The notes beneath the pieces are model-generated. The model searched no databases. It worked only from the letters and a program-made list of their open reading frames with translations, and was not told the origin of the DNA. This document shows positions 4,482 to 57,373 of a stretch of 64,000 bases of DNA, one piece after another (the stretch's first letter is position 1; every line of letters starts with the position of its first letter). This stretch comes from an uncultured Candidatus Saccharibacteria bacterium (lineage in GTDB: Bacteria; Patescibacteriota; Minisyncoccia; Phycocordibacterales; WO2-35-19). The stretch lies in the NCBI GenBank assembly GCA_964630525.1, contig CAZVUY010000001.1:114901-178900 (forward strand). Direction: 5' to 3'. The position numbers and the translations under genes are program-made.

Positions 4482-4687
4482 CTATAGTAAAAAGCGAAGT
4501 GGCGCTCGCACCGCGTAGCTTTGGAGCGTAGCGGAGGAGTGAAGTGGTGGAGATGTTCGATACGCCTACCTCGCAATGCCAAAGCTTCAGCGAAGGATTG
4601 GCGAACTTTGGTTGAGGAGGTATATAAATCATTAGTGATAGGGGAATTGGAAATTTAAATAAAAAGAAAGCCACCCCGATCGTACAA

Positions 4688-5380
4688 TCAAAAGAGGTGA
4701 CTTATAAATCCAACGATAGACCGCAGAGCTTTGACTAGATATGGTTGCAAGAACTTTTCAGGTTCACCGACAATTCGCAAGCTAAACGAGTGGTAGATTA
4801 TAATTACCGAAACAGCAACCATCCCAATCAAAGCAAGAAGCGTCAAACACCGATGCAAATAACTAAGCTTAGAGATTTGAGACGGGGTAACAACTGCGCG
4901 GATCAATTTTCTGCCATCGTTGTTTATTCCCCAGACGCTAAGTAGATTACTCAACTCCAGGAAAGCGGCGAGGCAAGCCCCGATGATCACGTCCTCGTAT
5001 TTCCCAAACTCTCCACACGAAAAGATTAGGAGGCTAAACGCAAGACCAAACACGGGTCCCGTAGCGGTGGAAAAATTTCCTGATTCCCAGTTTCTAATTC
5101 TGGTCTTGTAAACGCAGAGCCCTCCAAACCACGGGAACAAGTAAATTCCACGAACCGGGATACCTTTTTGGTTTGCGCCAACCGCGTGGCCTATTTCGTG
5201 CATCCAGAGTCCCAAGAAAATAAGCAAGGCTATGGGGGCCCTGAAAACCAACCAATATGAGGCAAGGCATGTTGCTGCGAGAAAAATCTTGCCACAAGGG
5301 ATCTTGTCAACAAGTCTGCAGGTAAACTCTTGAATTTTGGTCACCTTACACCACCTTTCTTCTAAGGTAGATAGAATCAA
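4688..5380 (-). CDS. Polytopic membrane zinc metalloprotease-like protein (HExxH in a TM segment, M50/site-2 protease-like)
   Basis: It has the motif MHEIGHAVGA and several hydrophobic helices. Confidence 0.45.
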   Translation of the reverse strand: MILSTLEERWCKVTKIQEFTCRLVDKIPCGKIFLAATCLASYWLVFRAPIALLIFLGLWMHEIGHAVGANQKGIPVRGIYLFPWFGGLCVYKTRIRNWESGNFSTATGPVFGLAFSLLIFSCGEFGKYEDVIIGACLAAFLELSNLLSVWGINNDGRKLIRAVVTPSQISKLSYLHRCLTLLALIGMVAVSVIIIYHSFSLRIVGEPEKFLQPYLVKALRSIVGFISHLF

Positions 5381-5545
5381 AAAAATGGATAAATGTCAAT
5401 ATTAGAGATTACGGGATAAAGGCAAACTCACAATAGGTCTAAAAATAGGCGTATTTTAGAATGTTTGAAATTCAATTAAATATTGGAAAACAAAGGCGAA
5501 AGGAAAAACCCTTCGATAAACTCAGGGTCCTACAAAAATATAGTC

Positions 5546-5570
5546 GCAAAAAATCCGCCTAACGGCGGAC
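5546..5570 (-). terminator. Rho-independent terminator downstream of tmRNA
   Basis: The minus strand reads AGTCCGCC-GTTA-GGCGGA followed by TTTTTT. Confidence 0.6.
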
Positions 5571-5588
5571 TTTTACTCCTTATTTTTG

Positions 5589-6013
5589 TGGAGAAGGGGG
5601 CATTGAAGCCCCATCCAGATAAGTTTTAACAATGTTTCTACGCGATATATTCAACTTTGTTTCCGCCGATGAGACGGAAAATTCGACGCTTGTTCTTTAA
5701 AATTGAAGAAACAAACAAACGTCTAGTTTTTTAGTTCAAACATAGAGTAAACACTTTCCATGTCCTAAGTCCGATTTATTACAATTATTTCTTCCTCCGG
5801 ACGAAGAAAGAATAACCGTCGTTTAGGCCTGAACTTAATTAAGCTCGAGCGTAAGCGAAAGCAAAGTCATTGACTCCAAAGTATGGAGAAACAACGCCTT
5901 TTGCTTTTGCAACAATGTTTTCAGCATTTATTGCTTTCTCACCTTTTTAAGAGTTATGAGAGCTCTACCGCGCACATTGTCAAAGATCCTACCTGTCTAA
6001 ACCTTTCATCCCC
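5589..6013 (-). ncRNA. ssrA: tmRNA (ssrA)
   Basis: The minus strand begins GGGGAUGAAAGGUUUAGACAGG, matching the tmRNA 5' consensus GGGG.UG....GGUUU.GACAGG. The 3' end is a T-arm GGGGC-UUCAAU-GCCCC followed by the acceptor CUUCUCC and discriminator A, giving G3:U70 alanine identity. CCA is not encoded. The internal reading frame runs ...GUC AAU GAC UUU GCU UUC GCU UAC GCU CGA GCU UAA. The gene lies directly downstream of smpB on the same strand. Confidence 0.8.
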
Positions 6014-6117
6014 AAACTATTTTTTTAATTACATTTATTAAAAAAATAATTTGGGGCCCGAGGAGCACATGACGAGGGCCTGCTCTCAGGAACTTTTGAT
6101 TTTTACCTCTATACTAG

Positions 6118-6561
6118 CTACTTGCTACTAGATTCTCTTCTCATTTCTCTCTCCGTATCCCTTTTCTTGATCGTCTCGCGCTTATCAAACTTCTTCTTGC
6201 CGCGGACGATCGCGATCTCGAGTTTCAATTTTCTCCCCTTATTATACACCGAGATTGGCACTATTGTCAATCCTTTCTGAGCTTCCTCTTTGCTTAGGTG
6301 CTCTATTTCTTTTTTGGTGAGAAGGAGTCGCCGAGTCCGGAGGGGGTCGTATTCCTTAGGGGTGTTGGCTGGTTGGTAGGGAGGGATCTGCATATTGAGG
6401 ATAAAGGCTTCATTGCCGCGCACCGTTACGTGAGCGCCCTCGAGAGAACCTTGGCTATTTTTGAGAGATTTCACCTCAAAACCAAGCAGCTCAATACCAG
6501 CCTCGATTTTTTCGAGAATTTCGTAGTTAAAATGGGCTTTTTTGCTTTGAATAAGGGGCAT
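6118..6561 (-). CDS. smpB: SsrA-binding protein SmpB
   Basis: The whole-length sequence is characteristic of SmpB (KKAHFNYEILEKIEAGIELLGFEVKS...). Its C-terminal basic tail reads KKKFDKRETIKKR. Confidence 0.9.
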   Translation of the reverse strand: MPLIQSKKAHFNYEILEKIEAGIELLGFEVKSLKNSQGSLEGAHVTVRGNEAFILNMQIPPYQPANTPKEYDPLRTRRLLLTKKEIEHLSKEEAQKGLTIVPISVYNKGRKLKLEIAIVRGKKKFDKRETIKKRDTEREMRRESSSK

Positions 6562-6601
6562 GCTCGTAATATTAGCATTTTCGTGCTATGATTGCCCCAA
6601 C

Positions 6602-8521
6602 ATGGCTAAAAACCAAAAATCTAATACGCCACCCAAGGACCCGTTAGAGGGCGCTGGCGGCGGTTTCGGTAGTTCCTTTTTTGGTAATTTCCTGATTGGA
6701 ATTTTAATCATATTTCTTGTCATTTCCATTTATTCAGTTATTTCGGACAATAAACAAAAGGAGGAGATCAGCATTTCCGAATTGGCTAGAGCGGTGAAGG
6801 TGGGTGAGGTGAAAGAACTGCAAATAAAAAACGGCGCTGTGGAAGCTATTTTCAAAGATGAGAGCACCAAAAAATCAACCAAAGAAGACAACGCCAGTAT
6901 CGCTGAGACCCTCTCCGCTTACGGAGTGACTCCGGAAGAACTGGGTGCAATCAAGGTCAACGTCAACCAAGAAGAAGGATTCCTTTATTGGCTCGTCAAC
7001 CTTTCACCGATCCTTTTCCCGATTCTTTTCATCGCTGTCTTCATCTGGCTTATGACCAGACAAATAAAAGGGGCGGGGATGCAAGCGTTTTCTTTCGGTC
7101 AGTCACGAGCTCGACTCACTACTCCAGATGATCAGAAGCAAAAAGTTACCTTCAAAGACGTAGCTGGTTGTAAAGAAGCCAAGGAAGAACTTTCCGAAAT
7201 CGTCGATTTTCTAAAAAACCCTAAAAAGTTTTTTGAGATTGGCGCCAGAATCCCAAAAGGTATATTGCTCATGGGTGCACCTGGTACTGGTAAAACCTTG
7301 CTAGCGAGGGCGGTCGCTGGCGAAGCTGGTGTTTCTTTCTTCTCGATCTCTGGTTCGGAATTTGTCGAAATGTTTGTCGGAGTAGGAGCGAGCCGAGTGC
7401 GCGACCTTTTCTTGATCGCCAAAAAGGCGGCACCCGCTATCATTTTCATGGATGAGATTGATGCGGTCGGCCGAGTGAGAGGTGGGGGCTTAGGTGGCGG
7501 CAATGACGAGAGGGAGCAGACCCTCAACCAGATTTTGGTAGAAATGGACGGTTTTGAACCAACCGAAAAAGTGGTAGTGATGGCGGCCACCAACCGCCCA
7601 GACGTACTCGATCCAGCTCTTTTGCGACCAGGCCGATTTGATCGCAGAGTCACCATAGATCTACCGGACCGCAATGATAGGGAGGAGATCCTTAAAATCC
7701 ATGCGAAATCAAAACCGTTAGCCGAAGATGTAAACCTCTCAGTTATCGCCGAAAGAACACCTGGTTTTTCTGGGGCCGATCTTTATTCCCTGATGAATGA
7801 AGGTGCGATCCTGACAGCGAGGGAAAACAGAGGCAAAATATCTCAGTTTGACCTGATCCGCTCTATTGAGAAAGTAATGCTCGGTCCAGAACGCAGAAGT
7901 CACATCCTTTCGAAAAAAGAAAAAGAGATCACTGCTTATCATGAAGCCGGTCATGCCCTAGTCGCGAGCGCCCTACCTTATGCTGATCCGGTCCACAAAA
8001 TATCAATCATTAGCCGCGGCCGAGCTGCTGGCTACACCTTGAAACTGCCGATAGAAGACAGAAAGTTGCAATCCAAAAAAGAATTCCTGGACGATATCGC
8101 CATGTCACTTGGTGGTTATGTGACCGAAAAAATAGTTTTTGGCGATCTGACCACCGGCCCTTCCAACGATCTACAAGTTTCGACTGCCATGGCGAGAGAC
8201 ATGGTGACCAAATACGGTATGTCCGAAAATATTGGGCCCGTAGCCCTAGAAGAGGCGAGTGGCAAAGCCATCTTTGGCAAAGGAGTCAATGAGAAAGATT
8301 ATTCTGAACAGGTCGGCGCCCTTATCGATACTGAAGTCTCTAAAATTATGAAGGAGGCTTACAATAAAGCAGAGCAAATCATTACCGAGCACCGACCACT
8401 ACTCGACATTATCGCCAAAAGATTGATCGAGACAGAAACCATCGAAAGAGACGAGTTTGAAAAAATACTCATCGCAAACGGTATCCAACCAAAAAAGAAA
8501 GAGGAGGTTTCTGGCCAATAA
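6602..8521 (+). CDS. ftsH: ATP-dependent zinc metalloprotease FtsH
   Basis: It has an N-terminal TM segment, the AAA+ Walker A GAPGTGKT, the SRH region and the HEAGHAL zinc motif. The likely start is MAKNQ at 6602; the track ORF begins at 6560. Confidence 0.95.
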
Positions 8522-15738: not shown

Positions 15739-16743
15739 ATGAAAAATAAAAAGACCTCACCCCAAAGAAAACTAGGTCCCAAAAAATCATTGGGGCAAAA
15801 TTTTTTGAGAGATCCGAAAATTTTGAAAAAAATAGTTGATTTCGCTCAAATCGAAAAAGGTGACACTGTGGTAGAGGTTGGACCAGGCGAAGGAGGCTTG
15901 ACGGAAGAGTTGTTAAAACAAGCAAAAAAAGTAATCGCGATCGAAAAAGATGAGGAGCTAGCAAAAAAGCTGGAAGATAAATTTCGGGATCAAATTCTAA
16001 ACTCAAGACTGAAGATTTTGGTGGGAGATATATTGGAGCTGAGAGCTGAGAGCTTAGAGCTTGAAGGAAGAAATCAGAAAAACAAAAACTCTGAGCTCTT
16101 AGCTCCAAGCTATAAGCTTGTCGGCAATATTCCGTACTACATTACCGGCGCTTTGTTTAAAAAATTTTTGGAAACAGAGCAACAACCAAAATCGATCACC
16201 TTTGTTGTCCAAAAAGAAGTGGCGGAGAGGATAGTGGCCCGAAACCCCAACTCCGCTAAAGCTTCGCGGGGCAAGCAAAAGGAAAGTATTTTGAGTATAT
16301 CGGTCAAGGTATATGGGGAACCAAAATTTGGCGGAGTCATCAAGGCTGGTAGCTTCTTTCCTAAACCAAAAGTTGATTCGGCTATTTTAAGTATTAGGAA
16401 TATCAGCAAAGAAAGATTCAATGATCTAATCCCCCCAACCCCCTTTACTTTAAAGGGGGAGGAGGCTCGAATAGAAAATAATTTTTTTGAAGAAATAACT
16501 CCCCCAACCACTCTTACAACAAGAGGGGAGTTGGAAAATAAATTTTTTGAAATATTAAAGACTGGCTTTGCTCACAAAAGAAAGCTGCTACTCCGCAACC
16601 TCCTCGACGCAAAAGTGTCAAAGGGCACCTTTGACACTTTTGCGATTAAAGAGGTTTTTGGAGTTTGTGGGCTGGATGAGAAAGCGCGGGCTGAAGATTT
16701 GAGAGTGGAAGACTGGCTAGCGCTTACACAAAAACTGGCCTAA
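15739..16743 (+). CDS. rsmA: 16S rRNA adenine dimethyltransferase RsmA/KsgA carrying two in-frame insertions
   Basis: It has LGQNFLRDPKIL...VVEVGPGEGGLTEEL and NIPYYIT. It is about 334 aa against about 260-290 typical. The first insert is the palindromic AGCT element at 16035-16119. The second is a ~65-bp x2 tandem duplication at 16431-16560. Confidence 0.85.
   Translation: MKNKKTSPQRKLGPKKSLGQNFLRDPKILKKIVDFAQIEKGDTVVEVGPGEGGLTEELLKQAKKVIAIEKDEELAKKLEDKFRDQILNSRLKILVGDILELRAESLELEGRNQKNKNSELLAPSYKLVGNIPYYITGALFKKFLETEQQPKSITFVVQKEVAERIVARNPNSAKASRGKQKESILSISVKVYGEPKFGGVIKAGSFFPKPKVDSAILSIRNISKERFNDLIPPTPFTLKGEEARIENNFFEEITPPTTLTTRGELENKFFEILKTGFAHKRKLLLRNLLDAKVSKGTFDTFAIKEVFGVCGLDEKARAEDLRVEDWLALTQKLA
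16035..16119. repeat. AGCT-rich palindromic miniature element inside the rsmA reading frame
   Basis: The left arm is ggagctgagagctgagagcttagagcttgaagg, an A-rich loop follows, and the right arm is ctctgagctcttagctccaagctataagctt. The same family occurs at 22327-22420, 22831/23247, 23857-23925, 53065-53115 and 55205-55280. Confidence 0.65.
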
Positions 16744-19342: not shown

Positions 19343-21748
19343 ATGGATATTTTAAAAAATACCAAAAAACCGACGATTAAAAAGATATTAACGATTATTG
19401 TTATAGTCACTATAACAATAGGGGTTTTGGGATTTCCTGATAAAACTGTTCTGGCAGATGTAAGTTTGCTTCAAGCAGCATTGGGACCGGGTGCCATAGG
19501 GTTGGGCATGATGGGTGTAGATGTTTTTGAGGTTATGGCAAAAGGTACAGCAGAAATGCTAATTAAAATTTCAGGTTTATTTCTAACAATAACAGGAAAG
19601 ATGTTTGACTATGTTGTTGATTTTACAATCCTCAATATGGCCCAGAGAGTTGGTAATTCCGAGGGAGGATTAGGGGCTAGCATTAGCGCGTCTTGGGCAT
19701 CTTTGCGTGATATAGCAAACATGTTGTTTATTTTTGTACTTTTGTACGTAGCCTTTAAAGCGATATTTGATTTAGACTTTGGTAGCGTAAGTAAGTCAAT
19801 CAGAAATATTATTATTGTTGCCCTACTAATTAACTTTAGTCTCTTTTTCTCGAAAGTAGTGATAGACGCCTCAAATATTGTGTCCATTGGATTCTATAAC
19901 TCTATAGTAACGGCTAACACCAGGAGTGTACAAGGAGAGGGTGCGGTGGTTGGTAACCAAACTATTTCAACTGGTTATATGCGGTTACTTGGACTAACAA
20001 AGTGGTTTGATTCAAAAATACTGGAAAAAACAAAAATGACTGACGCAAAACAAATACTGGCTTATGGAATTTTAACATTCATATTTATGATGGTGGTAAC
20101 AGTGGTTTTGCTTATCGCCACAATAATGCTGTTGGCTAGATTTGTCATGCTTATATTTATCATGATCCTTTCGCCACTTGCCCTAATTGCCATTATAGTT
20201 CCAGGTATGAGAGGTTATTTTGATAAGTGGTTTCATGCCCTAATAGACCAATCCTTTTTTGCCCCAGTTTTCCTTGCCTTAACTTGGGTAGTATTCAAAA
20301 TAGCCTCCACTCCCGGTTTTATAGTCGGTGGTACAACAATAATCGCTTCGCAGGGTGCCTCATACACCGATCTGATGTCCGAGGCACCATCTGGTGGAGT
20401 GCTAGCCCTTGTGCTTAATTACGCATTGATAATAGGATTTACAATCGCGTCTCTGGTGATCTCCAAACAAATGGCGAGCAGGACCGCCGGGTTTACAGCC
20501 ATCAGTGGTGGTATAGGTGCCGGTGCTATTGGTGGCGCGGCGATACTAGGAAGACAAACTATTGGGAGGGGGGCAAAAATGCTCGCCGAATCAAGCAAAC
20601 TTCGAGATGCGGCTTCTGCTGGCAAATGGTATTCGGGAGCTGCCCGAGCAGGCCTTTGGACGGCTGACAAGGGGGCAGGTGGTAGTTTTGATTTGAGAGC
20701 AACCGACACTTTAAAAAAGGTTCCGGGGCTTGGTAAGGAACTAGATCTGTTGGGCAAAGCGGGTGGTAAGGGTGGTTTTGTTAAAGCGGTTGAACAAAAA
20801 GCAGATGATAAAGCTAAATACGCTAAGCGTGTTTATGGTCAAACTGCGACTGAAACTGAAAAAGCGCGGGAATTGGAGATAGATTATAACAAGCAAAAAT
20901 CTTTAGATGAAATTAGGATTAAAACAGAAAGAGAAAAGATGGCTCGCGAGAAAGAAACTATTCATAATAGAAACATTATCAATAGAGATAGGTACTTCAA
21001 TGACTCAAGGGTGGCTGGAGACCAAAGACTTATAGATATTCAAAATGATTTTGAGTTTAAAAAAGACGAGTATGAAAAGGCAAAGAAATCAGGAACAAAA
21101 ACCAAGGAAGAGTTGGAAGAGCTAATGAAAGCCAGGGATGAAAGTAGAGAAAACATGGAAAAAACTCAGACATCTATCGCTGATGAGGTATTCAAAGGGG
21201 ATGTTGATTATGTGAACACTAGGGAAGCAGCCAAGTCAAGCAAAGAAGAGCTACGGAAAGCGAAAGAGAGGTTGAAAATGAACAAAGAAAATAAGTTTGA
21301 TGATAATGAATATTTGGATGAAGTGCAAAACCTAAAGAAAGAATGGGTAGCCAAAAAAGAAGCGGGTAAAAGGAGGATGATAGAATTTGCGGATAGAGTA
21401 GAAAAAGGTTCACCGGTTTCAACGATGGTGGGAGGGTTGGCTGGTGGCGCCTTAGGAACAATATTTGGGGGACCTATTGGGACGCTGATTGGAGCTGGAG
21501 CTGGTGCGGGAGGTGGCAGCTGGGCGGGCGGCAAGCTACCTAAGCGAGCTAACTGGGCAGGAAACACAGAGGCGGGAAGAAAAATAAGAGCGGCAGCCGA
21601 AGGAAGAGATAAAAAAGATCCTAAGAAACTTAAGAAAGAGATAGATGATTTGTTTGGTATAAAAAATGAAGAAGGGGATGGTCAAAGTGGTGACGAAGGA
21701 AATAAAAAAGAAGGCGAGGAAGATAAAGATAAGAAAAAAGAATCGTAA
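19343..21748 (+). CDS. Polytopic membrane protein with long charged coiled-coil C-terminus (VirB6/TrbL-like architecture)
   Basis: The first ~400 aa hold at least 6 hydrophobic helices. A K/E-rich region and GGxGG repeats follow. The likely start is MDILKNTKKP at 19343. Confidence 0.5.
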   Translation: MDILKNTKKPTIKKILTIIVIVTITIGVLGFPDKTVLADVSLLQAALGPGAIGLGMMGVDVFEVMAKGTAEMLIKISGLFLTITGKMFDYVVDFTILNMAQRVGNSEGGLGASISASWASLRDIANMLFIFVLLYVAFKAIFDLDFGSVSKSIRNIIIVALLINFSLFFSKVVIDASNIVSIGFYNSIVTANTRSVQGEGAVVGNQTISTGYMRLLGLTKWFDSKILEKTKMTDAKQILAYGILTFIFMMVVTVVLLIATIMLLARFVMLIFIMILSPLALIAIIVPGMRGYFDKWFHALIDQSFFAPVFLALTWVVFKIASTPGFIVGGTTIIASQGASYTDLMSEAPSGGVLALVLNYALIIGFTIASLVISKQMASRTAGFTAISGGIGAGAIGGAAILGRQTIGRGAKMLAESSKLRDAASAGKWYSGAARAGLWTADKGAGGSFDLRATDTLKKVPGLGKELDLLGKAGGKGGFVKAVEQKADDKAKYAKRVYGQTATETEKARELEIDYNKQKSLDEIRIKTEREKMAREKETIHNRNIINRDRYFNDSRVAGDQRLIDIQNDFEFKKDEYEKAKKSGTKTKEELEELMKARDESRENMEKTQTSIADEVFKGDVDYVNTREAAKSSKEELRKAKERLKMNKENKFDDNEYLDEVQNLKKEWVAKKEAGKRRMIEFADRVEKGSPVSTMVGGLAGGALGTIFGGPIGTLIGAGAGAGGGSWAGGKLPKRANWAGNTEAGRKIRAAAEGRDKKDPKKLKKEIDDLFGIKNEEGDGQSGDEGNKKEGEEDKDKKKES

Positions 21749-21753
21749 ATAAT

Positions 21754-22326
21754 ATGGAGGAGAGTAATAAAATATTAAAAGAACAGATAGAAAAATTGCC
21801 AACAGCGCTTAAAAATTTTGTGCTTAGCAATGAGTGGACAAAAAAATTGAGAGTATACCTGGATAGTCTTCAGCTGGAAGAGTGGCAGAAAGTTTCGGTA
21901 GAAAACGAAGTGTTTTTGATCTTGATGGGTTTCGAAGAGTATGCAAATTTACCAGGCAACATATCCGAAAATACCGAAATGGATTTTGAGGTAGCCGAAA
22001 AAATATCGGAGTTTGTAATAAAAGATATTTTGAAACCAGTAGCAGATTTGGTAGTAAAAGAATTTGAAAAATCGGAACAACCGCCATCCAGTTCAATCGG
22101 CAACTCATTCGAACGTATCATCTTAAACCAAGCGAGGGCGATGCAGCCCGCCCGCCTCGCTAGCGAGAGCGTTGCGGGCGGGCCAGCCCGCGAAGCGGGT
22201 AGTGGTAGCCAGCAACCAGCACCTAGCAGCCGGGTTCCGGACAATCTGCCGACTGAAGATTTGAAACCAAAACCTACAACACCAAATTATTCTGGGCAGG
22301 ATCCGTATAGAGAACCGGTGGAGTAG
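21754..22326 (+). CDS. Hypothetical acidic cytoplasmic protein with REP-hairpin-encoded low-complexity C-terminus
   Basis: The C-terminal residues ...ARAMQPARLASESVAGGPAREAGSG... are encoded by the GC hairpin copy at 22147-22182. Confidence 0.45.
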   Translation: MEESNKILKEQIEKLPTALKNFVLSNEWTKKLRVYLDSLQLEEWQKVSVENEVFLILMGFEEYANLPGNISENTEMDFEVAEKISEFVIKDILKPVADLVVKEFEKSEQPPSSSIGNSFERIILNQARAMQPARLASESVAGGPAREAGSGSQQPAPSSRVPDNLPTEDLKPKPTTPNYSGQDPYREPVE

Positions 22327-22420
22327 GGAGCTTGGAGCTAAAAGCTTAGAGCTTAGAGGAGAAAAATAAAAAATGATATAATTTTGAAAGCTTACAGCTC
22401 TAAGCTCTAAGCTCTAAGCT
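22327..22420. repeat. AGCT-rich palindromic miniature element filling the intergenic spacer exactly (stop-to-start)
   Basis: The sequence is ggagcttggagctaaaagcttagagcttagagg, an A/T loop, then aagcttacagctctaagctctaagctctaagct. Confidence 0.65.
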
Positions 22421-22423
22421 AAA

Positions 22424-22843
22424 ATGCGTTTTCAAATCCCACAATTCATCGACGTTGAAGATAAAATATTTGGTCCTTTTACCTTGAAGCAATTTATCTA
22501 CTTAGCCGGGGGGGCCAGTATCGCCCTCGCCTGCGTTACTATTTTCGGCTTAGTTTTGGGGCTCATGATCGCCTCACCGATCATCATCCTCGCCGCCGCG
22601 CTCGCTTTTTATAAGGTCAACAACAGACCGTTCATCAACATGCTCGAGTCTGCTTTCAAATATCTCACCAAAGACAAGCTTTATATTTGGCAAAAAAGCG
22701 AAAAAACTGAAGCTGAGATGGTGGCGGAAGAGAAAAAGTATAGCTCGGTCATTGTACCCAATCTTGGTGATAGCAAACTCAAAGACATGAACTGGCAATT
22801 GGATGTGAAGAAAAAGGAAGATGATCTATTAGCTAAGAGCTGA
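22424..22843 (+). CDS. Small two-TM membrane protein (VirB3-like position and topology)
   Basis: It is 139 aa with a hydrophobic hairpin LAGGASIALACVTIFGLVLGLMIASPIIILAAALAF. It lies upstream of the VirB4-like ATPase, as in Gram-positive T4SS operons. Confidence 0.4.
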   Translation: MRFQIPQFIDVEDKIFGPFTLKQFIYLAGGASIALACVTIFGLVLGLMIASPIIILAAALAFYKVNNRPFINMLESAFKYLTKDKLYIWQKSEKTEAEMVAEEKKYSSVIVPNLGDSKLKDMNWQLDVKKKEDDLLAKS

Positions 22844-22863
22844 GAGCTTGGAGCTTAGAGTAG
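22831..22863. repeat. Left half-arm of AGCT palindromic element
   Basis: The sequence agctaagagctgagagcttggagcttagagtag supplies the stop codon of the upstream gene. Confidence 0.55.
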
Positions 22864-22866
22864 AAA

Positions 22867-23235
22867 ATGCTAAAAACTTATAGAGATTTACTCATATGGA
22901 AAAGGTCGATAGATTTGGCAACAAAAGTATATAAAGTTACAGAAATTTTTCCAAAATCAGAAATATACGGGATTGTATCCCAAATGAGAAGATCGGCTGT
23001 TTCTATATCTTCAAACATAGCAGAGGGAAGGAACAGGGGCACAAGAAAAGATTTTGCTCAATTTTTGAGAATAGCGTTGGGTTCTACAGCGGAACTAGAA
23101 TCTCAGACAGAGATATCAAAAAATTTGAATTTTATAAACCAGATTGAATATTCACAGATAATCTCTGAGACAAATGAAATAGGAATGATGTTGCGTGCTA
23201 TAATTAGAAAGCTGGACTCTAAGCTCCAAGCTTAA
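22867..23235 (+). CDS. Four-helix-bundle protein of the '23S rRNA intervening-sequence protein' family
   Basis: It is 122 aa with YRDLLIWKRSIDLATKVYKVTEIFPKSEIYGIVSQMRRSAVSISSNIAEG, typical of the TIGR02436-like family. Half-arms of the AGCT element flank it on both sides. Confidence 0.75.
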   Translation: MLKTYRDLLIWKRSIDLATKVYKVTEIFPKSEIYGIVSQMRRSAVSISSNIAEGRNRGTRKDFAQFLRIALGSTAELESQTEISKNLNFINQIEYSQIISETNEIGMMLRAIIRKLDSKLQA

Positions 23236-23247
23236 AGCTCTAAGCTT
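23212..23247. repeat. Right half-arm of AGCT palindromic element
   Basis: The sequence ctggactctaagctccaagcttaaagctctaagctt encodes the last residues and the stop of the four-helix-bundle gene. Confidence 0.55.
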
Positions 23248-23250
23248 TTT

Positions 23251-23871
23251 ATGAAAAATGCTACTCAAGAATTTGTACCGATAGACGATGTGCGCGATGG
23301 GATAGCCATCCTCAAAAGCGGTGGGATGCGCGGCGTACTCATGGCTTCAAGCGTAAACTTCTCCCTCAAGTCAGAAGAGGAGAGGCAGGCTATCCTATTC
23401 CAATTCCAAGATTTCTTAAACTCTCTGGATTTTTCGGTCCAGATCATCGTCCAATCAAGAAAGCTCGATATCAGACCCTATATCGCCCTTTTGGAGAACA
23501 GGCACAAAGAGCAAACCAACGACCTGATGAAAATCCAGATCGAACAATACATTGCTTTCATTAGAAGTTTTACCGAATCGACCAACATCATGACCAAAAA
23601 CTTCTTCATTGTGGTCCCATATGATGCCGCCATCATCTCTACCAAAACAGGGTTGTTGGACAATTTGCGAGGCAATAGGAACAAAGAGACAAAGGAAGAA
23701 GATTTCGAAGAAAGGCGCAATCAGCTCGAGCAGCGAATGGGAGTGGTAGAGCAGGGCTTGGTGCGCTCCGGCGTCAGGGTAGCCAAGCTCGGTACCGACG
23801 AAGTGGTCGAGTTGTTTTATAAGATATTTAATCCGGGAGAAACGGAGAAACCAATCAAGCTTGGAGCTTGA
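23251..23871 (+). CDS. VirB4/TrbE/CagE N-terminal-domain-like protein (separate ORF)
   Basis: The motif IDDVRDGIAILKSGGMRGVLMASSVNFSLKSEEERQAILFQFQDFLNSL resembles the N-terminal domain of VirB4-family ATPases. Its stop codon lies inside a palindromic element. Confidence 0.5.
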   Translation: MKNATQEFVPIDDVRDGIAILKSGGMRGVLMASSVNFSLKSEEERQAILFQFQDFLNSLDFSVQIIVQSRKLDIRPYIALLENRHKEQTNDLMKIQIEQYIAFIRSFTESTNIMTKNFFIVVPYDAAIISTKTGLLDNLRGNRNKETKEEDFEERRNQLEQRMGVVEQGLVRSGVRVAKLGTDEVVELFYKIFNPGETEKPIKLGA

Positions 23872-23925
23872 AGCTAATAGCTTAGAGGAAAAAACTTTAA
23901 ACTCCAAGCTCTTAGCTCTAAGCTT
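23857..23925. repeat. AGCT-rich palindromic miniature element separating the two VirB4-like ORFs
   Basis: The sequence is aagcttggagcttgaagctaatagcttagagg, then aaaaaactttaaa, then ctccaagctcttagctctaagctt. Confidence 0.65.
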
Positions 23926-23933
23926 TCAAAAAT

Positions 23934-25727
23934 ATGTTCGACTTTTTAAAGAAAAAACCAAAAGAAAATCTGACCACCGTTTCGATCTTGCCCAAATCGA
24001 TCACCGAGAGCTCCGAGCTTGAGCTGCGCGATATCTTGGCCCCGAGCGCCCTCAAGGTCAATGTTAAAGAACTGAATTTGGGCGAGAAAGTAGTGAGAAC
24101 TTTTTTCGTCATCTCTTATCCTAGGTTTTTGTCCGAAGATTGGTTCGCACCGGTCATCAACATGGACAAAATGTTTGATATTTCTATCTTCATCCACCCA
24201 GTTGAGACCGCGACCGTCCTACGTGGTTTTCAAAAAAAGGTAGCCGAAGTACAAAGCCAGATCAGGATCAGGGAAGAGAAGGGGTTGGTCCGCGACCCGA
24301 TTTTAGACACCGCCTATCAAGATTTGGAGAATTTGCGCGACCAACTCCAACAAGCCCAAGAGAAAATGTTTGAGGTCGGTCTCTATGTATCCATCTACGC
24401 CAACAATACCGACGAGCTCGACAAGGCCGAATCCGAGATCAAATCGATCCTCGAATCAAAGCTAGTCTATATGAAGCCAGCCCTCTTCCAGCAAGAGCAA
24501 GGCTTTCGCAGCATCCTACCAATCGGTGAGGACGAACTCGCTGTCCACTCGAAAATAAACTCTTCGCCGCTTTCAAGTATTTTCCCTTTTATCTCCTTCG
24601 ACCTCACTTCCGACAAGGGTATCCTCTACGGTATCAACCGACACAACTCCTCTCTGGTACTTTTCGACCGTTTCTCGCTTGAGAACTACAATTCCGTCAC
24701 CTTCGCCAAATCCGGTTCTGGTAAATCATACGCTACCAAACTCGAGATTCTTCGTACTTTGATGTTCGATACCGAAGTAATTGTGATGGATCCGGAAAAC
24801 GAGTACCAATATATGGCTGAAGCGGTGGGTGGTCGTTATTTCAATATTTCTCTCAATTCCGACCATCATATCAATCCGTTTGAGCTGCCGGTGCCCGGAG
24901 AAGATGAGTCGAGCGCCTCGGTCTTGCGCTCCCAAATCATCAACTTGGTAGGTCTTTTCCGGATCATGATGGGTGGCCTCACCGCTGAAGAAGACGCGAT
25001 CATCGACCGAGCTATCACTGAGACTTACGCCCTCAAAGACATCACCGCTGATTCTGATTTTAAAAATGTTGAACCACCACTTCTCTCCGACTTCGAGCTC
25101 GTGCTAGGTGGGATGGAGGGAGGGGAGTCACTCGCTCAACGCCTTTCCAAATACACCCGCGGCACCTGGTCCAACTTCATCAACAAACCTTCCAATATCG
25201 ACATCAATAAAAAGTTTGTCGTCTTCTCGATTCGCGACATGGAAGACGAGCTCAAACCGGTCGCTATGTACATCGTCATGCACTACATCTGGAATGCTAT
25301 TAGGCGGGAGATCAGGAAGCGTCTCTTGGTGATCGACGAGGCCTGGTGGATGATGAAATCTGAAGACACCGCCTCCTTTCTCCTGTCGCTCGCCAAACGT
25401 GGCCGCAAATATTATCTCGGGCTCGCCACCATCACTCAAGACGTCGACGACTTTTTGAAATCACCTTATGGCATGCCGATCGTCACCAACTCTTCAATCC
25501 AAATACTACTCAAACAGTCGCCAACCACCATCGACCGACTGCAGGAAGTTTTCAACCTGACCAACGAAGAGAAATACTTGCTCATCGAGTCGGGGGTAGG
25601 TGAGGGAATATTTTTCGCCGGCCTCAAACACGTAGCGATCAAGATCATTGCCTCCTACACCGAAGACCAGATCATCACCTCCGATCCGTCTCAAATCTTG
25701 GCGATCAAAAAACAAAATGCAAAATAA
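23934..25727 (+). CDS. VirB4/TraC/CagE-family type IV secretion ATPase (ATPase domain)
   Basis: It has the Walker A FAKSGSGKSY, the Walker B LLVIDEAWWMM, and the C-terminal LGLATITQDVDDF and KQSPTTIDRL motifs. Confidence 0.8.
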   Translation: MFDFLKKKPKENLTTVSILPKSITESSELELRDILAPSALKVNVKELNLGEKVVRTFFVISYPRFLSEDWFAPVINMDKMFDISIFIHPVETATVLRGFQKKVAEVQSQIRIREEKGLVRDPILDTAYQDLENLRDQLQQAQEKMFEVGLYVSIYANNTDELDKAESEIKSILESKLVYMKPALFQQEQGFRSILPIGEDELAVHSKINSSPLSSIFPFISFDLTSDKGILYGINRHNSSLVLFDRFSLENYNSVTFAKSGSGKSYATKLEILRTLMFDTEVIVMDPENEYQYMAEAVGGRYFNISLNSDHHINPFELPVPGEDESSASVLRSQIINLVGLFRIMMGGLTAEEDAIIDRAITETYALKDITADSDFKNVEPPLLSDFELVLGGMEGGESLAQRLSKYTRGTWSNFINKPSNIDINKKFVVFSIRDMEDELKPVAMYIVMHYIWNAIRREIRKRLLVIDEAWWMMKSEDTASFLLSLAKRGRKYYLGLATITQDVDDFLKSPYGMPIVTNSSIQILLKQSPTTIDRLQEVFNLTNEEKYLLIESGVGEGIFFAGLKHVAIKIIASYTEDQIITSDPSQILAIKKQNAK

Positions 25728-25728
25728 C

Positions 25729-25802
25729 ACCCCTCCCAACCCTCCCCAAAAGAGAGGGTTCCAAACCCCCTTCCCCTTCGGGGAAGGGTTGAGGATGGGG
25801 TG
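25729..25802. repeat. GC-rich hairpin cluster (CCCTTCCCC-TTCG-GGGAAGGG etc.)
   Basis: It sits directly after the VirB4 stop. It is terminator-like and related in style to the other GC-rich REP-like hairpins. Confidence 0.45.
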
Positions 25803-25825
25803 GAAATGATATAATCAAGTGAAAT

Positions 25826-31909: not shown

Positions 31910-33253
31910 ATGGATATCCATGAACTTTGGAAAGATGTCTTACCTAAAATAGAAGCTTCTGTTTCAAAAGCTAACTTCTCCACTTGGTTTAAAGATACTA
32001 AGGTAGCCGGTTTTGAGGGTGGCATAATATACCTAAGTGTCCCAAACACCTTTGTTCAAGAATGGCTATTAAAGAAATTTCATCAGCTTATTTTGCGATT
32101 CCTTAGGGAGTCCTCTGAATCAATCCATGCATTAGAATACGTAATCAAAGAAGAGGTTGAAACAAAAAACCAATACATCCCAACCAAAAACACTTCGGCT
32201 ACCAAGGAGTTGCCACTCTCTGAACATTATGTGAATAAGGACGATAATCTAAACCCACGCTATACTTTTGAATCTTTCGTAGTTGGTCCATTTAATGAGC
32301 TGGCTCACTCTGCTGCCCAAGCGGTCATTCGCAACCCAGGCATCGCCTATAACCCACTGTTTATCTACGGTAATACGGGGCACGGAAAGACCCATTTGAT
32401 CCAAGCAATCGGTAATGCCATAAAAGCTGTCGACGCATCCAAAAAAGTTTACTATTTCAACTCGGAAAAGTTCATCAACGATTATGTAAACTCTGTTCAA
32501 TCAAACAAGGTTAGCCAATTCAAAGAAAAATATCGAAAATACGATATGTTAATAATGGACGATGTCCAGTTCCTTTCTGGTAAAGAAAAAACCCAGGAGG
32601 AGCTTTTCCATCTATTTAACATCATGAAAGAGAGTAACAAACATATTGTCTTCTCTTGCGATAAGCACCCCAATTTCGTCACCGGCCTAGAAGATAGATT
32701 AAAATCCAGATTCTCAGCTGGTATGGTTATCGATATTCCAGCCCCAGATCACGAATCAAGAGTGGCGATTATAAAATCAAAATGTGCCAGCATCAACCTC
32801 TTTATAGAAGATGATGTTATAAATTATTTGGCTGATGCCATAAAGGGTAACATTCGAGATCTAGAAGGGGCGATCAATTTGATTGTTTGCCAGTCAGAAA
32901 CAAAAAACAAAGTTCTTAACTTAAACGAAATTAAAGATTTAGTTAAAAACAGTATAAAACAAAAGAAATTATTGTCTTACAAAGAAGTTGTGAAGATAAT
33001 ATCTGATTTTTATAAAATAGAAGAAGGTTCAATATACGAAAAAACCAGAAGAAAGGAAATAATAAAACCGAGACAAATTATTATGTATATTCTCCGAGAA
33101 GATTTCAGTATCTCTTACCCTTCGATAGGAGAAAAACTTGGTGGTAGAGACCACACTACAGTTATCCACTCTTGTGAAAAGATAAAAAAAGAAATAAAGG
33201 TCGATTCTTTATTATTAAAAGAAATTCAGGAAATCCGATCAATGATTGGATGA
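31910..33253 (+). CDS. dnaA: Chromosomal replication initiator DnaA
   Basis: It has the Walker A GNTGHGKTHL, the sensor motifs and the C-terminal DNA-binding domain ...GGRDHTTVIHSCEKI. Confidence 0.95.
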   Translation: MDIHELWKDVLPKIEASVSKANFSTWFKDTKVAGFEGGIIYLSVPNTFVQEWLLKKFHQLILRFLRESSESIHALEYVIKEEVETKNQYIPTKNTSATKELPLSEHYVNKDDNLNPRYTFESFVVGPFNELAHSAAQAVIRNPGIAYNPLFIYGNTGHGKTHLIQAIGNAIKAVDASKKVYYFNSEKFINDYVNSVQSNKVSQFKEKYRKYDMLIMDDVQFLSGKEKTQEELFHLFNIMKESNKHIVFSCDKHPNFVTGLEDRLKSRFSAGMVIDIPAPDHESRVAIIKSKCASINLFIEDDVINYLADAIKGNIRDLEGAINLIVCQSETKNKVLNLNEIKDLVKNSIKQKKLLSYKEVVKIISDFYKIEEGSIYEKTRRKEIIKPRQIIMYILREDFSISYPSIGEKLGGRDHTTVIHSCEKIKKEIKVDSLLLKEIQEIRSMIG

Positions 33254-33463
33254 TAATTTGTTATTTAACTGTTAATAACTTGTTCCCAAACCAAGTTGAT
33301 TTAGTGGATAAGTTTAGAGTGGTCGTAGGGTTGTTGATTTGATCAATAGACTATGCACAATTGATTATAGGAAAATTATCAACAAAACATTGATTAATAA
33401 ATACTTTATTGAGATATCCACAAATCCACAGTAATAATAAGAGTTTGTTTCTTTAAATAAAAA
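33254..33463. promoter_or_regulatory. dnaA-dnaN intergenic region with DnaA-box-like 9-mers (candidate oriC)
   Basis: GTGGATAAG, TTATCAACA, ATATCCACA and AATCCACAG all lie within an AT-rich spacer. Confidence 0.55.
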
Positions 33464-34573
33464 ATGAAATTTAAATCAGAAAAAATAAAAGTTGAAAATG
33501 TTTTTCAGAAGGCCGTCCGATTTTCAGGAAAACACCTAACTCTACCAGTATTGGCGTGTGTTTATTTGGAAACCATTGGCAATAACAAGGTTTTAGTCAA
33601 GGCAACTAATCTTGATGTTGGTATTGAGATTGAATTCAAATCAGAAGTCTTGGAGCCTGGATCGATGGCGGTACCAGCAAATATTATTCTAAATACAATC
33701 TCTTCAATGAGAGAAGGGGAGATCTCTTTTGAAACAATAGACAACAACCTGAAGATTTCTTCTGGTAAGAATTCTGTATTGATAAAATCAATGTCTCACG
33801 AAGATTTCCCGGTTATTCCAAGATTAAATCCGGATAATAATTCAAAATTTGTAAAAATCAGCAGTCATGATCTGGTTCTTGGTTTCAAGTCTGTTTGGTA
33901 TAGCGCCTCAAATTCAAATATCAAACCAGAATTAGGAAGTGTTTTTGTTTATCATAATGACAATAATCTAGTTTTTGTTTCCACTGATTCTTTTAGGTTG
34001 GCTGAGAAAAAAATAACAACAAAATCTGATTTGGAATTTCCACCAGTTTTGATTCCCTATAAAAACGCGGTTGAAATAATAAAACTTTTTGAGGATTATA
34101 AAGGGGATATAGAGATCATTTTTGAGAAAAACCAAGCGGCCTTTATGGTAGATGGGTTATACCTCATCTCTCGTTTGGTAGACGGCTCATTTCCTGATTA
34201 TAAACAAATAATACCAAAATCATTTGTCGCCAAAGCAACTGTTTTAAAAAACGATCTTCTAAACTCCATCAAAGTTTCAAATATTTTTTCTGACAACCTT
34301 AATCAGGTAAAATTAAAAATAAATATTAAAGATAAAATTATTAACCTCGAATCAAAAAATAATGATGTTGGGGAATATAAAGAGTCAATCAAAGCAACTC
34401 TTTCTGGTGATGATTTGGAGTTAAATTTCAACAACAAATATCTGACGGACTGTTTTCAATCTATACCAAGTGAGAGTGTTGATCTGGATTTTGGTGGTTT
34501 GGGTAAGCCGCTTATAATCACAGGACACAATGATAAAAGTTTTATGTATTTAGTGATGTCTATGAATAGATAA
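33464..34573 (+). CDS. dnaN: DNA polymerase III beta sliding clamp
   Basis: It is 369 aa and sits directly downstream of dnaA. Confidence 0.9.
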   Translation: MKFKSEKIKVENVFQKAVRFSGKHLTLPVLACVYLETIGNNKVLVKATNLDVGIEIEFKSEVLEPGSMAVPANIILNTISSMREGEISFETIDNNLKISSGKNSVLIKSMSHEDFPVIPRLNPDNNSKFVKISSHDLVLGFKSVWYSASNSNIKPELGSVFVYHNDNNLVFVSTDSFRLAEKKITTKSDLEFPPVLIPYKNAVEIIKLFEDYKGDIEIIFEKNQAAFMVDGLYLISRLVDGSFPDYKQIIPKSFVAKATVLKNDLLNSIKVSNIFSDNLNQVKLKINIKDKIINLESKNNDVGEYKESIKATLSGDDLELNFNNKYLTDCFQSIPSESVDLDFGGLGKPLIITGHNDKSFMYLVMSMNR

Positions 34574-52655: not shown

Positions 52656-53264
52656 ATGACTAAAACCCAAAACCCCAATATCGTCGTTGTTTTAAATGAT
52701 ATAAGGAGTAACGAAAATGTCGGCTCGATTTTTCGTACCTGCGATGCGGCTGGCGTCTCCAAGATTTTTTTATGTGGCTACACTCCAGCTCCGGTTGACC
52801 GATTTGGCCGGGAAAACAAGGGGTTGACCAAAGCGTCTTTGGGAGCCGAGAGGTGGGTTCTGTGGGAAAAAGTAGAAAGTTTGCAGGGGGCTATTGAAAA
52901 AATTAAGCAGCTTCCTTCGGGGAATTCTCAAAAATGCACGGATATTTTCTTGCTAGAAAATTCCTCGTGCTCGGCTCAGTCAGCCTCGCAAGGCATTTTT
53001 GATAACACCCACTCAGGAAGCTGCTTAGTGGTTGGAGTCGAACAATCAGAAAATTCGATTGATTACCGCGAGCTCAAAAAATCTACGCTCCTAGCTTCTA
53101 GCTCTCAGCTTGCTCTTGTTTTTGGAAATGAGGTAGGTGGTTTGTCTCAGGAAGACTTAAAACTTTGTGATCTGGTGGCCGAAATTCCAATGCATGGTCG
53201 CAAAGAGTCCCTCAATGTGGCCGTCTCAGTGGGTGTCGTCCTGTTTTCGTTAGTAGCTGACTGA
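52656..53264 (+). CDS. SpoU/TrmH-family RNA 2'-O-methyltransferase with in-frame insertion
   Basis: It has NVGSIFRTCDAAG, LVFGNEVGGLSQEDL and a C-terminal SPOUT knot. An inserted segment at about 52900-53115 ends in an AGCT-element arm (53088-53115). Confidence 0.8.
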   Translation: MTKTQNPNIVVVLNDIRSNENVGSIFRTCDAAGVSKIFLCGYTPAPVDRFGRENKGLTKASLGAERWVLWEKVESLQGAIEKIKQLPSGNSQKCTDIFLLENSSCSAQSASQGIFDNTHSGSCLVVGVEQSENSIDYRELKKSTLLASSSQLALVFGNEVGGLSQEDLKLCDLVAEIPMHGRKESLNVAVSVGVVLFSLVAD

Positions 53265-55204: not shown

Positions 55205-55280
55205 AAAGCTTAAAACTAAGAGCTTTTAGCTTAGAGTGTAAGGGAATAAACTTCAAGCTCCTAGCTCTCAGCTCTAAGCC
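55205..55280. repeat. AGCT-rich palindromic miniature element between mutM and murE; encodes the last residues and stop of the Mur ligase
   Basis: The sequence is aagcttaaaactaagagcttttagcttagagtg, then taagggaataaact, then tcaagctcctagctctcagctctaagcc. Confidence 0.6.
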
Positions 55281-56660: not shown

Positions 56661-57224
56661 TTATTTACCCAGATTTTTGAGGGCGATTTTTATTTTCTCA
56701 TTGGTGCCAGTGACTTCTTTTGGCAAGTTGCGGATCACTTCTTGGATATCTTTTTCTCGATAGCCGAGCGACTTGAGGGCGTCAAAAACATCAATATCTT
56801 CTCTGTTGTCTCGATGTTCTGATCTGGTGACTAATTTGCCATTGAGCTCTATCACTATTCGTTCGGCTGTTTTTTTGCCGATGCCGGATATTTTGGTGAG
56901 AGCTGAAATGTCTCCGGAGCCGACCGCTTCTTCGATCGCTCTTACTCCGGCTACTCCCAAAATAGCCAAGCCCGACTTTGGACCAACCCCAGAAACAGAG
57001 ATGAGAAGTTCAAAAACCCTCAATTCTTCTTCGGTTTCAAAACCGTAAAGATCGATTGAATTTTCTCGGACAGCCGTATATGTCCAGAAACTTGCTTCCA
57101 GACCAGCCCTTAGTCGTTCACTATAGGAGGGGACGATGTGGATGGTAAAGCCGATCCCACCAGTCATGACGATGACCTTGGTCGGTTTGAGATCAAATAT
57201 TTTGCCGCTGATGTAGCCAAACAT
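56661..57224 (-). CDS. ruvA: Holliday junction DNA helicase RuvA
   Basis: It has an OB-fold N-terminus MFGYISGKI and the HhH motifs VSGVGPKSGLAIL and ISGIGKKTAERI. Confidence 0.9.
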   Translation of the reverse strand: MFGYISGKIFDLKPTKVIVMTGGIGFTIHIVPSYSERLRAGLEASFWTYTAVRENSIDLYGFETEEELRVFELLISVSGVGPKSGLAILGVAGVRAIEEAVGSGDISALTKISGIGKKTAERIVIELNGKLVTRSEHRDNREDIDVFDALKSLGYREKDIQEVIRNLPKEVTGTNEKIKIALKNLGK

Positions 57225-57373
57225 AAATTAAGTGGCCAGTAGCAAGTAGCTAGTAGCTGGATATAATATAGCAAACCTAAGGTTATTTTGCCGTTGCATT
57301 TTTTAAAGCTTTCTGTTACTGTATTTAAGCCAATTTCCTAGATACTGGATACTGGCTACTAAATACTAAAATT

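Follow-up and report, generated by a model that had tools for sequence, protein, structure and literature searches.

In Patescibacteria, TrsD is the most abundant component of the type IV secretion system (T4SS); it is a remote homologue of the N terminus of VirB4, its gene mostly adjoins virB4, and it is essential in Ca. Southlakia epibionticum (PMC12102498). A second described system, the intervening sequence (IVS) of the Coxiella burnetii 23S rRNA, consists of a 28-bp stem of terminal inverted repeats with tandem heptamers (GACAGAT) and carries an S23p open reading frame (ORF) in its loop (PMC4990558). RNase III cuts within this stem, and the ORF and the repeats are decaying, with a heptamer copy number that varies (PMC4990558). 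Both systems bear on the locus considered here, positions 23251–25727 of a 64,000-nucleotide (nt) stretch of contig CAZVUY010000001.1 (the window), in which two ORFs, ORF1 and ORF2, are separated by a 69-bp palindrome. We find that ORF1 is a trsD-like gene, that ORF2 is virB4, and that the palindrome is an ORF-less IVS-type hairpin that belongs with the heptamer arms flanking genes for the S23p protein IVP. Taken as one explanation, an ancestral two-gene VirB4 that was later invaded by an IVS-type hairpin is in our judgement highly probable. The two-gene VirB4 is known; what appears to be new here is that S23p heptamer hairpins of the IVS type, at this junction in an ORF-less form, occur in coding regions and in operons transcribed as mRNA, not in 23S rRNA.

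A first-pass annotation of the window read ORF1 and ORF2 as the N-terminal domain and the ATPase domain of VirB4, lying in different frames and parted at the natural linker between the two domains. The frames do differ (23251 mod 3 = 1, 23934 mod 3 = 0), and both ORF calls stand. ORF2 scores 375.9 bits on the NCBIfam model of CD1110-type VirB4 (NF045971), above the curated cut-off of 325, with residues 22–568 mapping to positions 179–733 of this 752-position model. It matches Pfam P-loop_TraG at residues 249–551 (2.2e-27), and its translation contains a Walker A motif, KSGSGKSY, and a Walker B motif, LLVIDEAW. Positions 2–167 of NF045971 are covered by ORF1, and the two ORFs tile the VirB4 model colinearly; VirB4 is not a single polypeptide here, since positions 2–167 are encoded separately. 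The same order is seen on the Mbov_0397 VirB4 model, with ORF1 at positions 101–233 and ORF2 at 285–893. The P-loop domain of ORF2 does not start until residue ~249, and the ~230 residues at the beginning of ORF2 correspond to the latter half of VirB4's N-terminal region; this places the break inside the N-terminal half of VirB4 and not at the boundary of the ATPase domain. The identification of ORF2 as the VirB4 ATPase thus holds, with the amendment that ORF2 also contains much of the N-terminal region, and the placement of the break at an inter-domain linker does not.

The identity of ORF1 emerges from several kinds of comparison. On the NCBIfam TrsD/TraD model (NF041427), it aligns to positions 16–200 of 201 with E = 1.2e-7 and 31.8 bits. 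A Pfam scan of ORF1 gave no match even at E = 10 with a copy of Pfam that lacked model PF26593, and this model, named 'TraC-like', is recorded, unmarked, for the protein identical to ORF1 in public contigs. Neither the sequence nor the profile of ORF1 found anything meaningful among the PDB chains, and VirB4 was found by structure-based search only. When an AlphaFold (AF2) model of ORF1 (predicted local distance difference test, pLDDT, of 86.1) was used in a fold search, the top 14 PDB matches were TrwK/VirB4 chains of the R388 T4SS, with probabilities of 0.99–1.00 and query-normalised TM-scores up to 0.63; matches after the top 14 had probabilities of ≤0.25. A rare fused relative, P0214 (797 amino acids, aa), has the two parts in one chain and in the same order, its residues 8–214 corresponding to ORF1 (41% identity) and its residues 230–794 to ORF2 (55%). 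Colinear profiles, the fused relative, and the TrwK/VirB4 fold match all bear out the reading of ORF1 as the N-terminal part of VirB4. ORF1 is a TrsD/'TraC-like' protein homologous to the first ~170–215 residues of single-chain VirB4, and ORF1 and ORF2 together are a complete VirB4, whose two chains presumably come together as a single working ATPase.

The junction between the two genes was compared in 80 species-representative loci from Paceibacterota, Zambryskibacteria, and related metagenome-assembled genomes, of which 77 were readable with both genes present. The order prgI – (IVP) – ORF1 – ORF2 is shared by the window and these orthologous loci, and in 77 of 77 loci, all from other species of Patescibacteria, the two genes are separate. 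The spacer between trsD and virB4 (trsD/virB4) measures −1 to 30 nt in 54 of the loci, 31–150 nt in 15, and >400 nt in eight. No repeat is present in the 54 loci with a short spacer, and many of these spacers are 1–10 nt long, a spacing compatible with translational coupling. ORF2 keeps its start codon and its N terminus in element-free loci, with alignments that begin at query residue 1. For ORF1, 7177 homologues were found, and the best 120 (79–96% identity) are all about 197–218 aa long. A search of 1.84 billion cluster representatives with ORF1 returned 2352 matches, and the best 150 of these are nearly all stand-alone proteins of 190–450 aa, the only ones of fusion length being P0214 and P0243 (898 aa). 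We conclude that trsD and virB4 as separate genes are the ancestral and normal form in Patescibacteria, an arrangement that was already known, and that the T4SS operon of the window, from a genome of the Paceibacteria/Zambryskibacteria type, follows it.

Candidate fusions among the relatives were rejected. In locus L018, ORF1 and ORF2 look fused in frame, but the spacer (4600–4700) is masked as a run of N, which mimics a fusion in automated ORF calls; loci L114 and L115 each have two ORFs, 8 nt apart. As a separate observation, the virB4 ORF of loci L051, L053, and L057 is ~3.8 kb long (about 4630–8430), and its match to the window protein is broken after residue ~265, near Walker A, which suggests an intein or another large in-frame insertion.

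The palindrome at the window's trsD/virB4 junction reads AAGCTTGGAGCTTGAAGCTAATAGCTTAGAGG-aaaaaac-TTTAAACTCCAAGCTCTTAGCTCTAAGCTT, with AGCT every 7 nt. It was correctly described at first pass as a 69-bp AGCT element, and it is imperfect: a repeat search gives arms of 26 nt that are 73% complementary, and the predicted RNA fold has a perfect 12-bp outer stem followed by segments of 4, 2, and 6 bp between 3-nt internal loops. The minimum free energy is −27.6 kcal/mol compared with a mean of −16.7 for dinucleotide shuffles (z = −4.06). Shuffled sequence is expected to contain 0.00 copies of a pattern of three AGCT heptads, AGCTNNNAGCTNNNAGCT, and the window contains 18. The palindrome does supply the stop codon of ORF1, TGA at 23869–23871, which lies inside the left arm; this arm encodes the last three codons and the stop (LGA*) of the tail ...IKLGA*. 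Orthologues of ORF1 end ...PIK(I/M)(S/N/K), and the window protein ends ...PIKLGA. At the other end, the right arm is close to the ATG of ORF2 but not immediately before it, as 8 nt (TCAAAAAT) lie in between. The whole 62-nt spacer, with 0 or 1 substitution, is present in contigs that encode an identical ORF1 and come from four independent samples and assemblers; the junction is therefore real.

The extent of the inserted segment can be read from a close relative. In locus L081, ORF1 is 96% identical at the protein level and the region is about 90% identical at the nucleotide level. L081 aligns to the window up to 22821, then over 23254–23858, and again from 23932. The segment at the trsD/virB4 junction with no homology in L081 is accordingly 23859–23931, with alignment breaks at 23858/23932, and includes the A/T-rich 3′ tail (TCAAAAAT). 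The 69-bp palindrome is a secondary insertion into an old spacer that overwrote the last codons of trsD, supplied a stop, and spared the start of virB4.

The relationship of the palindrome to the IVS type is seen 600 bp upstream, between prgI and ORF1, where a full-length element encloses an IVP gene. The IVP protein matches PF05635 at 4.8e-38 (130.1 bits; cut-off 33.8) and TIGR02436, 'four helix bundle protein', at 7.4e-38 (129 bits), and is weakly Avd-like. The arms of this element, 31 nt each, are 87% complementary, and the RNA of 22822–23255 folds into a 28-bp terminal stem enclosing the IVP ORF (−116.7 kcal/mol, z = −5.57). The arms of the 69-bp copy are 84–87% complementary to the arms around this IVP gene, and its loop keeps AAAAACTT, a match to the IVP gene at its 5′ end. 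In locus L018, the IVP gene is cut down to residues 94–122 between AGCT arms and is an intermediate form. On the sequence likenesses, the 69-bp copy is most likely an internal-deletion derivative of an IVP-bearing insertion.

Further copies of the AGCT-heptad hairpin occur in the window (Table 1). The one upstream of prgI is nearly identical in L081 and carries in its loop TGATATAAT, an extended −10-like box. Another lies in frame within rsmA/ksgA (Pfam RrnaAD, 1.9e-44), where it is translated as ...ELRAESLELEGRNQKNKNSELLAPSYKL... (~27 residues) in a variable loop before GNIPYYIT, by comparison with Bacillus subtilis KsgA. The copy ahead of fpg holds the TAG stop of the Mur-ligase gene in its left arm and ends 6 nt before the fpg ATG; the region upstream of fpg also holds IVP-bearing elements in loci L097 and L104. 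An Rfam scan of the window found only a tmRNA and three tRNAs and no rRNA.

Table 1. Positions of the two VirB4 genes, the elements, and associated genes in the window
Feature	Position	Strand	Remarks
AGCT-heptad hairpin in frame within rsmA/ksgA (15739–16743)	16037–16118	+	fold z = −4.04
Short ORF-less AGCT-heptad hairpin	22329–22420	+	between a 190-aa ORF (21754–22326) and prgI; −37.5 kcal/mol, z = −5.38
prgI (virB3-like) gene	22424–22843	+	Pfam PrgI, 5.2e-10; stop TGA (22841–22843) in the left arm of the next element
Full-length IVS-type element	22831–23246	+	arms 22831–22861 and 23216–23246 around a 122-aa IVP (S23p) gene (22867–23235)
ORF1, trsD-like ('TraC-like', PF26593)	23251–23871	+	206 aa, ATG start; from ORF call
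69-bp imperfect palindrome, AGCT-heptad arms, ORF-less IVS-type hairpin	23857–23925	+	from sequence, repeats, fold, assemblies, and L081 alignment
ORF2, virB4 (MPF-FATA/CD1110-type conjugal-transfer ATPase)	23934–25727	+	597 aa, ATG start
AGCT-heptad hairpin between Mur-ligase gene and fpg/mutM	55207–55280	−	−35.4 kcal/mol, z = −4.72

Comparison with relatives indicates that these elements turn over. L081 lacks the IVP element altogether (22822–23253 is absent), and its trsD/virB4 junction holds an unrelated 124-nt spacer with an AGTAGCT-heptad element. Locus L004 has a related AGCT-type element at this same junction, and other species have short hairpins of quite different heptamer families there. 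Junctions are filled or replaced between genomes of ~90% identity, and the elements are therefore gained and lost within short evolutionary times, leaving the flanking genes intact. Eight species carry a cargo gene at the trsD/virB4 junction, IVP in seven and GxxExxY in one. The latter case is locus L003, where TACGAAA-heptad arms enclose a GxxExxY/PDDEXK_3 ORF at 4615–5139 (TIGR04256, 2.2e-17; PF13366, 4.5e-19); with this ORF in the place of IVP, the hairpin cassettes therefore have alternative cargo, one kind of it nuclease-like.

The AGTAGCT-heptad family of L081 is also present in the window. This second family of heptamer hairpins (AGTAGCN / NGCTACT) has a copy at ~57226–57372, in the divergent region between ruvA (56661–57224, minus strand) and a probable rpsT, with TGGATATAAT in its loop, and a fragment at 6111–6133 beside smpB. 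A solitary arm of the AGCT-heptad type (AGCTGAGAGCTAGAAGCTAGGAGC, minus strand) lies at 53093–53125 within a SpoU rRNA methylase ORF (52656–53264), whose matched stretch is ~47 residues longer than the span of the Pfam model; this arm may be the decayed half of an element, lying in a coding region. Separately, the final coding bases of trsD are repeated in inverted orientation immediately behind its stop codon in L013, L017, L024, and L025 (near 4600) and in L081 (3600–3650). The inverted copy is perfect over 15–17 bp in L017, L025, and L081 (in L081, for example, GAAGCCAATTAAAATTT...AAATTTTAATTGGCTTC); that of L013 is shorter and that of L024 approximate. The copy forms a small hairpin just ahead of the heptamer element; its sequence is species-specific, with halves that match in each species.

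IVP genes generally have heptamer arms. The flanks of 29 IVP genes in T4SS loci have an identity of 0.44–0.50 at a lag of 7 nt compared with ~0.27 at other lags, and for 59 IVP genes from metagenomes, fetched by protein similarity, the lag-7 identity of the flanks is 0.50 and 0.45. In 51 of 81 non-redundant elements, both arms are clearly heptamer-periodic, and there the arms are complementary at 20.4 of 28 positions as against 13.7 for random pairing. The heptamers themselves vary among elements (TAGCTNT, CGAATAG, CAGTTNA, GAGTTAC, TGAATTA, GAGCTTA, and others), an AG[CT]T core being common to many. All three frames contain a stop in 32 of 51 left arms and in 17 of 51 right arms of IVP cassettes that are not phylogenetically independent, and we regard this excess as suggestive, making no claim of a designed translational stop.

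The 33 IVP ORFs seen in T4SS loci are not fully independent, as the genome of the window is represented among these loci by more than one assembly; all are co-oriented with the operon, and all lie upstream of prgI, between prgI and trsD, or between trsD and virB4. Elsewhere, with gene names taken from reading the translations, IVP elements lie between co-oriented housekeeping cistrons: upstream of fpg, upstream of ksgA, and at rpmI/rplT, ftsE/ftsX, nuoC/nuoD, and gap/rpiB. The IVP cassettes were co-oriented with both neighbours in 14 of 14 loci inspected.

What, then, of the proposal that a single-chain virB4 was recently cut in two by a miniature palindromic element, leaving a disrupted gene or a newly two-chain enzyme? 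The element does hold the ORF1 stop and does part two ORFs in different frames, and fused relatives such as P0214 exist. Orthologues that encode two proteins without the repeat had been named at the outset as the observation that would speak against such a split, however, and this is the situation in 54 of the 77 readable loci, whose spacers are −1 to 30 nt. With thousands of stand-alone homologues of ~206 aa, a TrsD and VirB4 pair that had already been described (PMC12102498), and an ORF2 start codon and N terminus that are kept where the element is absent, we consider a recent split extremely unlikely. Nor is the gene recently disrupted, as both ORFs are intact and are 64–96% (ORF1) and 73–93% (ORF2) identical to their orthologues; of the two outcomes that the first-pass annotation offered, a functional two-chain VirB4 is the right one, in the form of the ancestral two-gene arrangement of the relatives. 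Least probable of all, with a chance that we take to be negligible, is that the palindrome is a chimeric or collapsed repeat produced by an assembler. Short palindromic repeats can mislead assemblers, but the same junction, with 0 or 1 substitution, appears in four samples and assemblers, and L004 has a related AGCT-type element.

Two further accounts accept the palindrome and differ on its nature. It could be a regulatory structure that evolved in place in the T4SS operon (a terminator, an attenuator, or a translational-coupling device) and not an insertion. A stable hairpin exactly between two cistrons would fit this account, as would the clustering of heptamer tracts at the prgI, trsD, and virB4 junctions in 53 loci. 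The stem is followed by TCAAAAAT and not by a T-run, however, so that it does not have the form of an intrinsic terminator, and no terminator-like site is found at this position on the plus strand; moreover, most orthologous junctions have no such hairpin, L081 (~90% nucleotide identity) has unrelated sequence in its place, and the repeat recurs inside ksgA and upstream of fpg. We think a regulatory origin quite improbable. Marginally less improbable, and still unlikely, is a classical miniature inverted-repeat transposable element (MITE), moved in trans by a transposase (DDE or another type) and unrelated to IVP. The palindrome is short and present in several copies per 64 kb in intergenic and in-frame coding positions, and its presence varies between close relatives, all of which a MITE would explain. 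It would not explain arms that are variable heptamer arrays in place of fixed termini, loops that are unrelated between copies, the same arms around an IVP gene 600 bp away, or the generality of heptamer arms in IVP genes. No target-site duplication was seen at any of the four complete copies, no transposase was found among the window ORFs scanned, and the cargo-bearing relatives hold IVP or GxxExxY only.

Several points weigh against the ancestral two-gene VirB4 with a later IVS-type insertion as we have set it out. The 31.8 bits of ORF1 on the TrsD model are far under its curated cut-off of 200 bits, and on its sequence ORF1 is best called a homologue of the TrsD family and not a curated member of NF041427. 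The argument that the 69-bp copy is a deletion derivative draws on the identity of the arms, a brief resemblance in the loop, and a single intermediate form found in a relative, and the loops of the short copies are unrelated among themselves. The lack of a target-site duplication at the four complete copies and of a known transposase among the window ORFs scanned counts here as well. The stem of the 69-bp copy is interrupted, with 12 perfect pairs and 3-nt internal loops as compared with 17–18 contiguous pairs elsewhere, and may therefore be a poorer RNase III substrate than those other copies. Finally, we infer co-transcription, RNase III cleavage, and an effect on virB4 expression.

With these points in mind, we propose the following course of events for the ancestral pair and its hairpin. 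An old trsD/virB4 spacer was invaded by a member of a selfish family of hairpin elements whose arms are inverted arrays of 4–5 tandem heptamers, here GAGCTNR / YNAGCTC. The full-length form of the family carries in its loop an S23p/IVP gene for a four-helix-bundle, Avd-like protein, and the 69-bp ORF-less form most likely arose by internal deletion of that gene. In the polycistronic transcript of the operon, the element is expected to fold into a hairpin with about 30 pairing positions, and by analogy with rRNA IVSs this hairpin is probably a substrate of RNase III. Processing by RNase III may then separate the trsD and virB4 mRNAs.

A promoter and terminator scan of 21700–24200 gave counts at chance level, with no plus-strand site at 23857–23925. 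The ribosome-binding site before 23934 that the first-pass annotation had suggested looking for is not there. This is uninformative: upstream of ~37 inspected ORFs of the window there is almost no Shine-Dalgarno sequence, and because the genes of the window are generally poor in this signal, its lack before 23934 is not evidence against translation of virB4. Many of these ORFs have a TAnAAT or TGnTAnAAT box 6–10 nt before their ATG, and this placement of −10-like boxes suggests widespread leaderless or very short-leader mRNAs. In the spacer after virB4 (25728–25825) there is a different, GC-rich nested palindrome, CACCCCTCCCAACCCT...CCCCTTCCCCTTCGGGGAAGGG...AGGGTTGAGGATGGGGTG, followed by TGATATAAT 9 nt ahead of the next ATG; this spacer looks like a terminator plus a promoter. 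Farther on, ~6 kb downstream of virB4, lie dnaA and dnaN (31910–34573), and the T4SS operon thus adjoins the presumed replication origin, in agreement with a published remark on origin-proximal T4SSs in Patescibacteria (PMC12102498).

For annotation, the consequence is that a two-ORF VirB4 in Patescibacteria is a native TrsD plus VirB4 and should not be recorded as a pseudogene or as transposon damage. For IVSs, the locus shows that S23p hairpins of this type exist outside rRNA, in operons that yield mRNA and in places even within a reading frame. They occur full-length, with part of the element deleted, and without an ORF, and different families replace each other at one junction in genomes that are ~90% identical in nucleotides. 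Where IVSs and the abundant PF05635 proteins come from, how they move, and what they do has been a puzzle since about 1990, and polymorphic junctions of this kind are natural experiments on the rules of insertion, on RNase III processing, and on the recognition of heptamers by IVP. A wider idea, which we put forward tentatively and hold to be possible but on balance doubtful, is that heptamer hairpins bearing S23p/IVP (occasionally GxxExxY) are one large mobile 'intervening sequence' superfamily that extends beyond 23S rRNA. Such elements would colonise the junctions of co-transcribed cistrons (in Paceibacteria especially the origin-proximal prgI–trsD–virB4, and elsewhere rpmI/rplT, ftsE/ftsX, and nuoC/nuoD), turn over fast between close relatives, and decay in place to ORF-less hairpins; the cognate oligomeric IVP would recognise the heptamer arrays specific to its family, and RNase III would process the stem and so uncouple the flanking cistrons. 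If this idea is true, the filled, empty, and replaced junctions that Patescibacteria metagenomes contain by the hundred would make the origin and movement of IVSs directly testable.

Short selfish palindromes are familiar from other bacteria: Rickettsia palindromic elements and repetitive extragenic palindromic (REP) or MITE-type palindromes sit at gene ends and are tolerated in frame inside genes. The in-frame copy within ksgA resembles them in this respect. The window elements differ in that they have no sequence relation to these repeats, their arms are heptamer arrays, and their cargo is IVP (or GxxExxY) and not a RAYT or DDE transposase. Our search of one literature library found no description of S23p/heptamer or GxxExxY hairpin elements outside rRNA, which is not proof of novelty.

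The closer likeness is to the 23S rRNA IVSs of Coxiella and Leptospira. The full-length element of the window, like these, has a PF05635/TIGR02436 four-helix-bundle ORF in its loop, within a predicted 28-bp terminal stem that contains heptamers; the 69-bp copy forms a heptamer hairpin and has no ORF. The decay of the ORF in Coxiella likewise has its counterpart in the ORF-less and partly deleted forms of the window and its relatives. The heptamer, however, is GACAGAT in Coxiella and GAGCTNR in the window, and the window elements lie between or inside protein-coding cistrons and not in helix 25 or 45 of 23S rRNA. Excision by RNase III, proven for rRNA IVSs, would apply to the window elements by analogy only.

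As for VirB4 itself, ORF1 and ORF2 combine features of single-chain and two-chain systems. With the single-chain VirB4 of the CD1110/Tn916 type, PrgJ, TcpF, and TrwK of R388, they share the complete model that the two ORFs tile and, in ORF1, a predicted fold like the N-terminal part of TrwK. They differ in that the window and almost all close relatives have two polypeptides, with the break within the N-terminal half, although fused homologues exist among distant relatives (P0214). With the TrsD and TrsE (VirB4) of the staphylococcal pGO1/pSK41 type and with the TrsD–VirB4 pair of Patescibacteria (PMC12102498), they share a remote VirB4-N homologue of ~200 aa whose gene immediately precedes virB4, within an operon that also contains prgI/virB3. 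The window ORF1 is, however, better described by PF26593 'TraC-like' than by the TrsD model, and the usual short spacer of the Patescibacteria pair is expanded to 62 nt in the window by the hairpin element.

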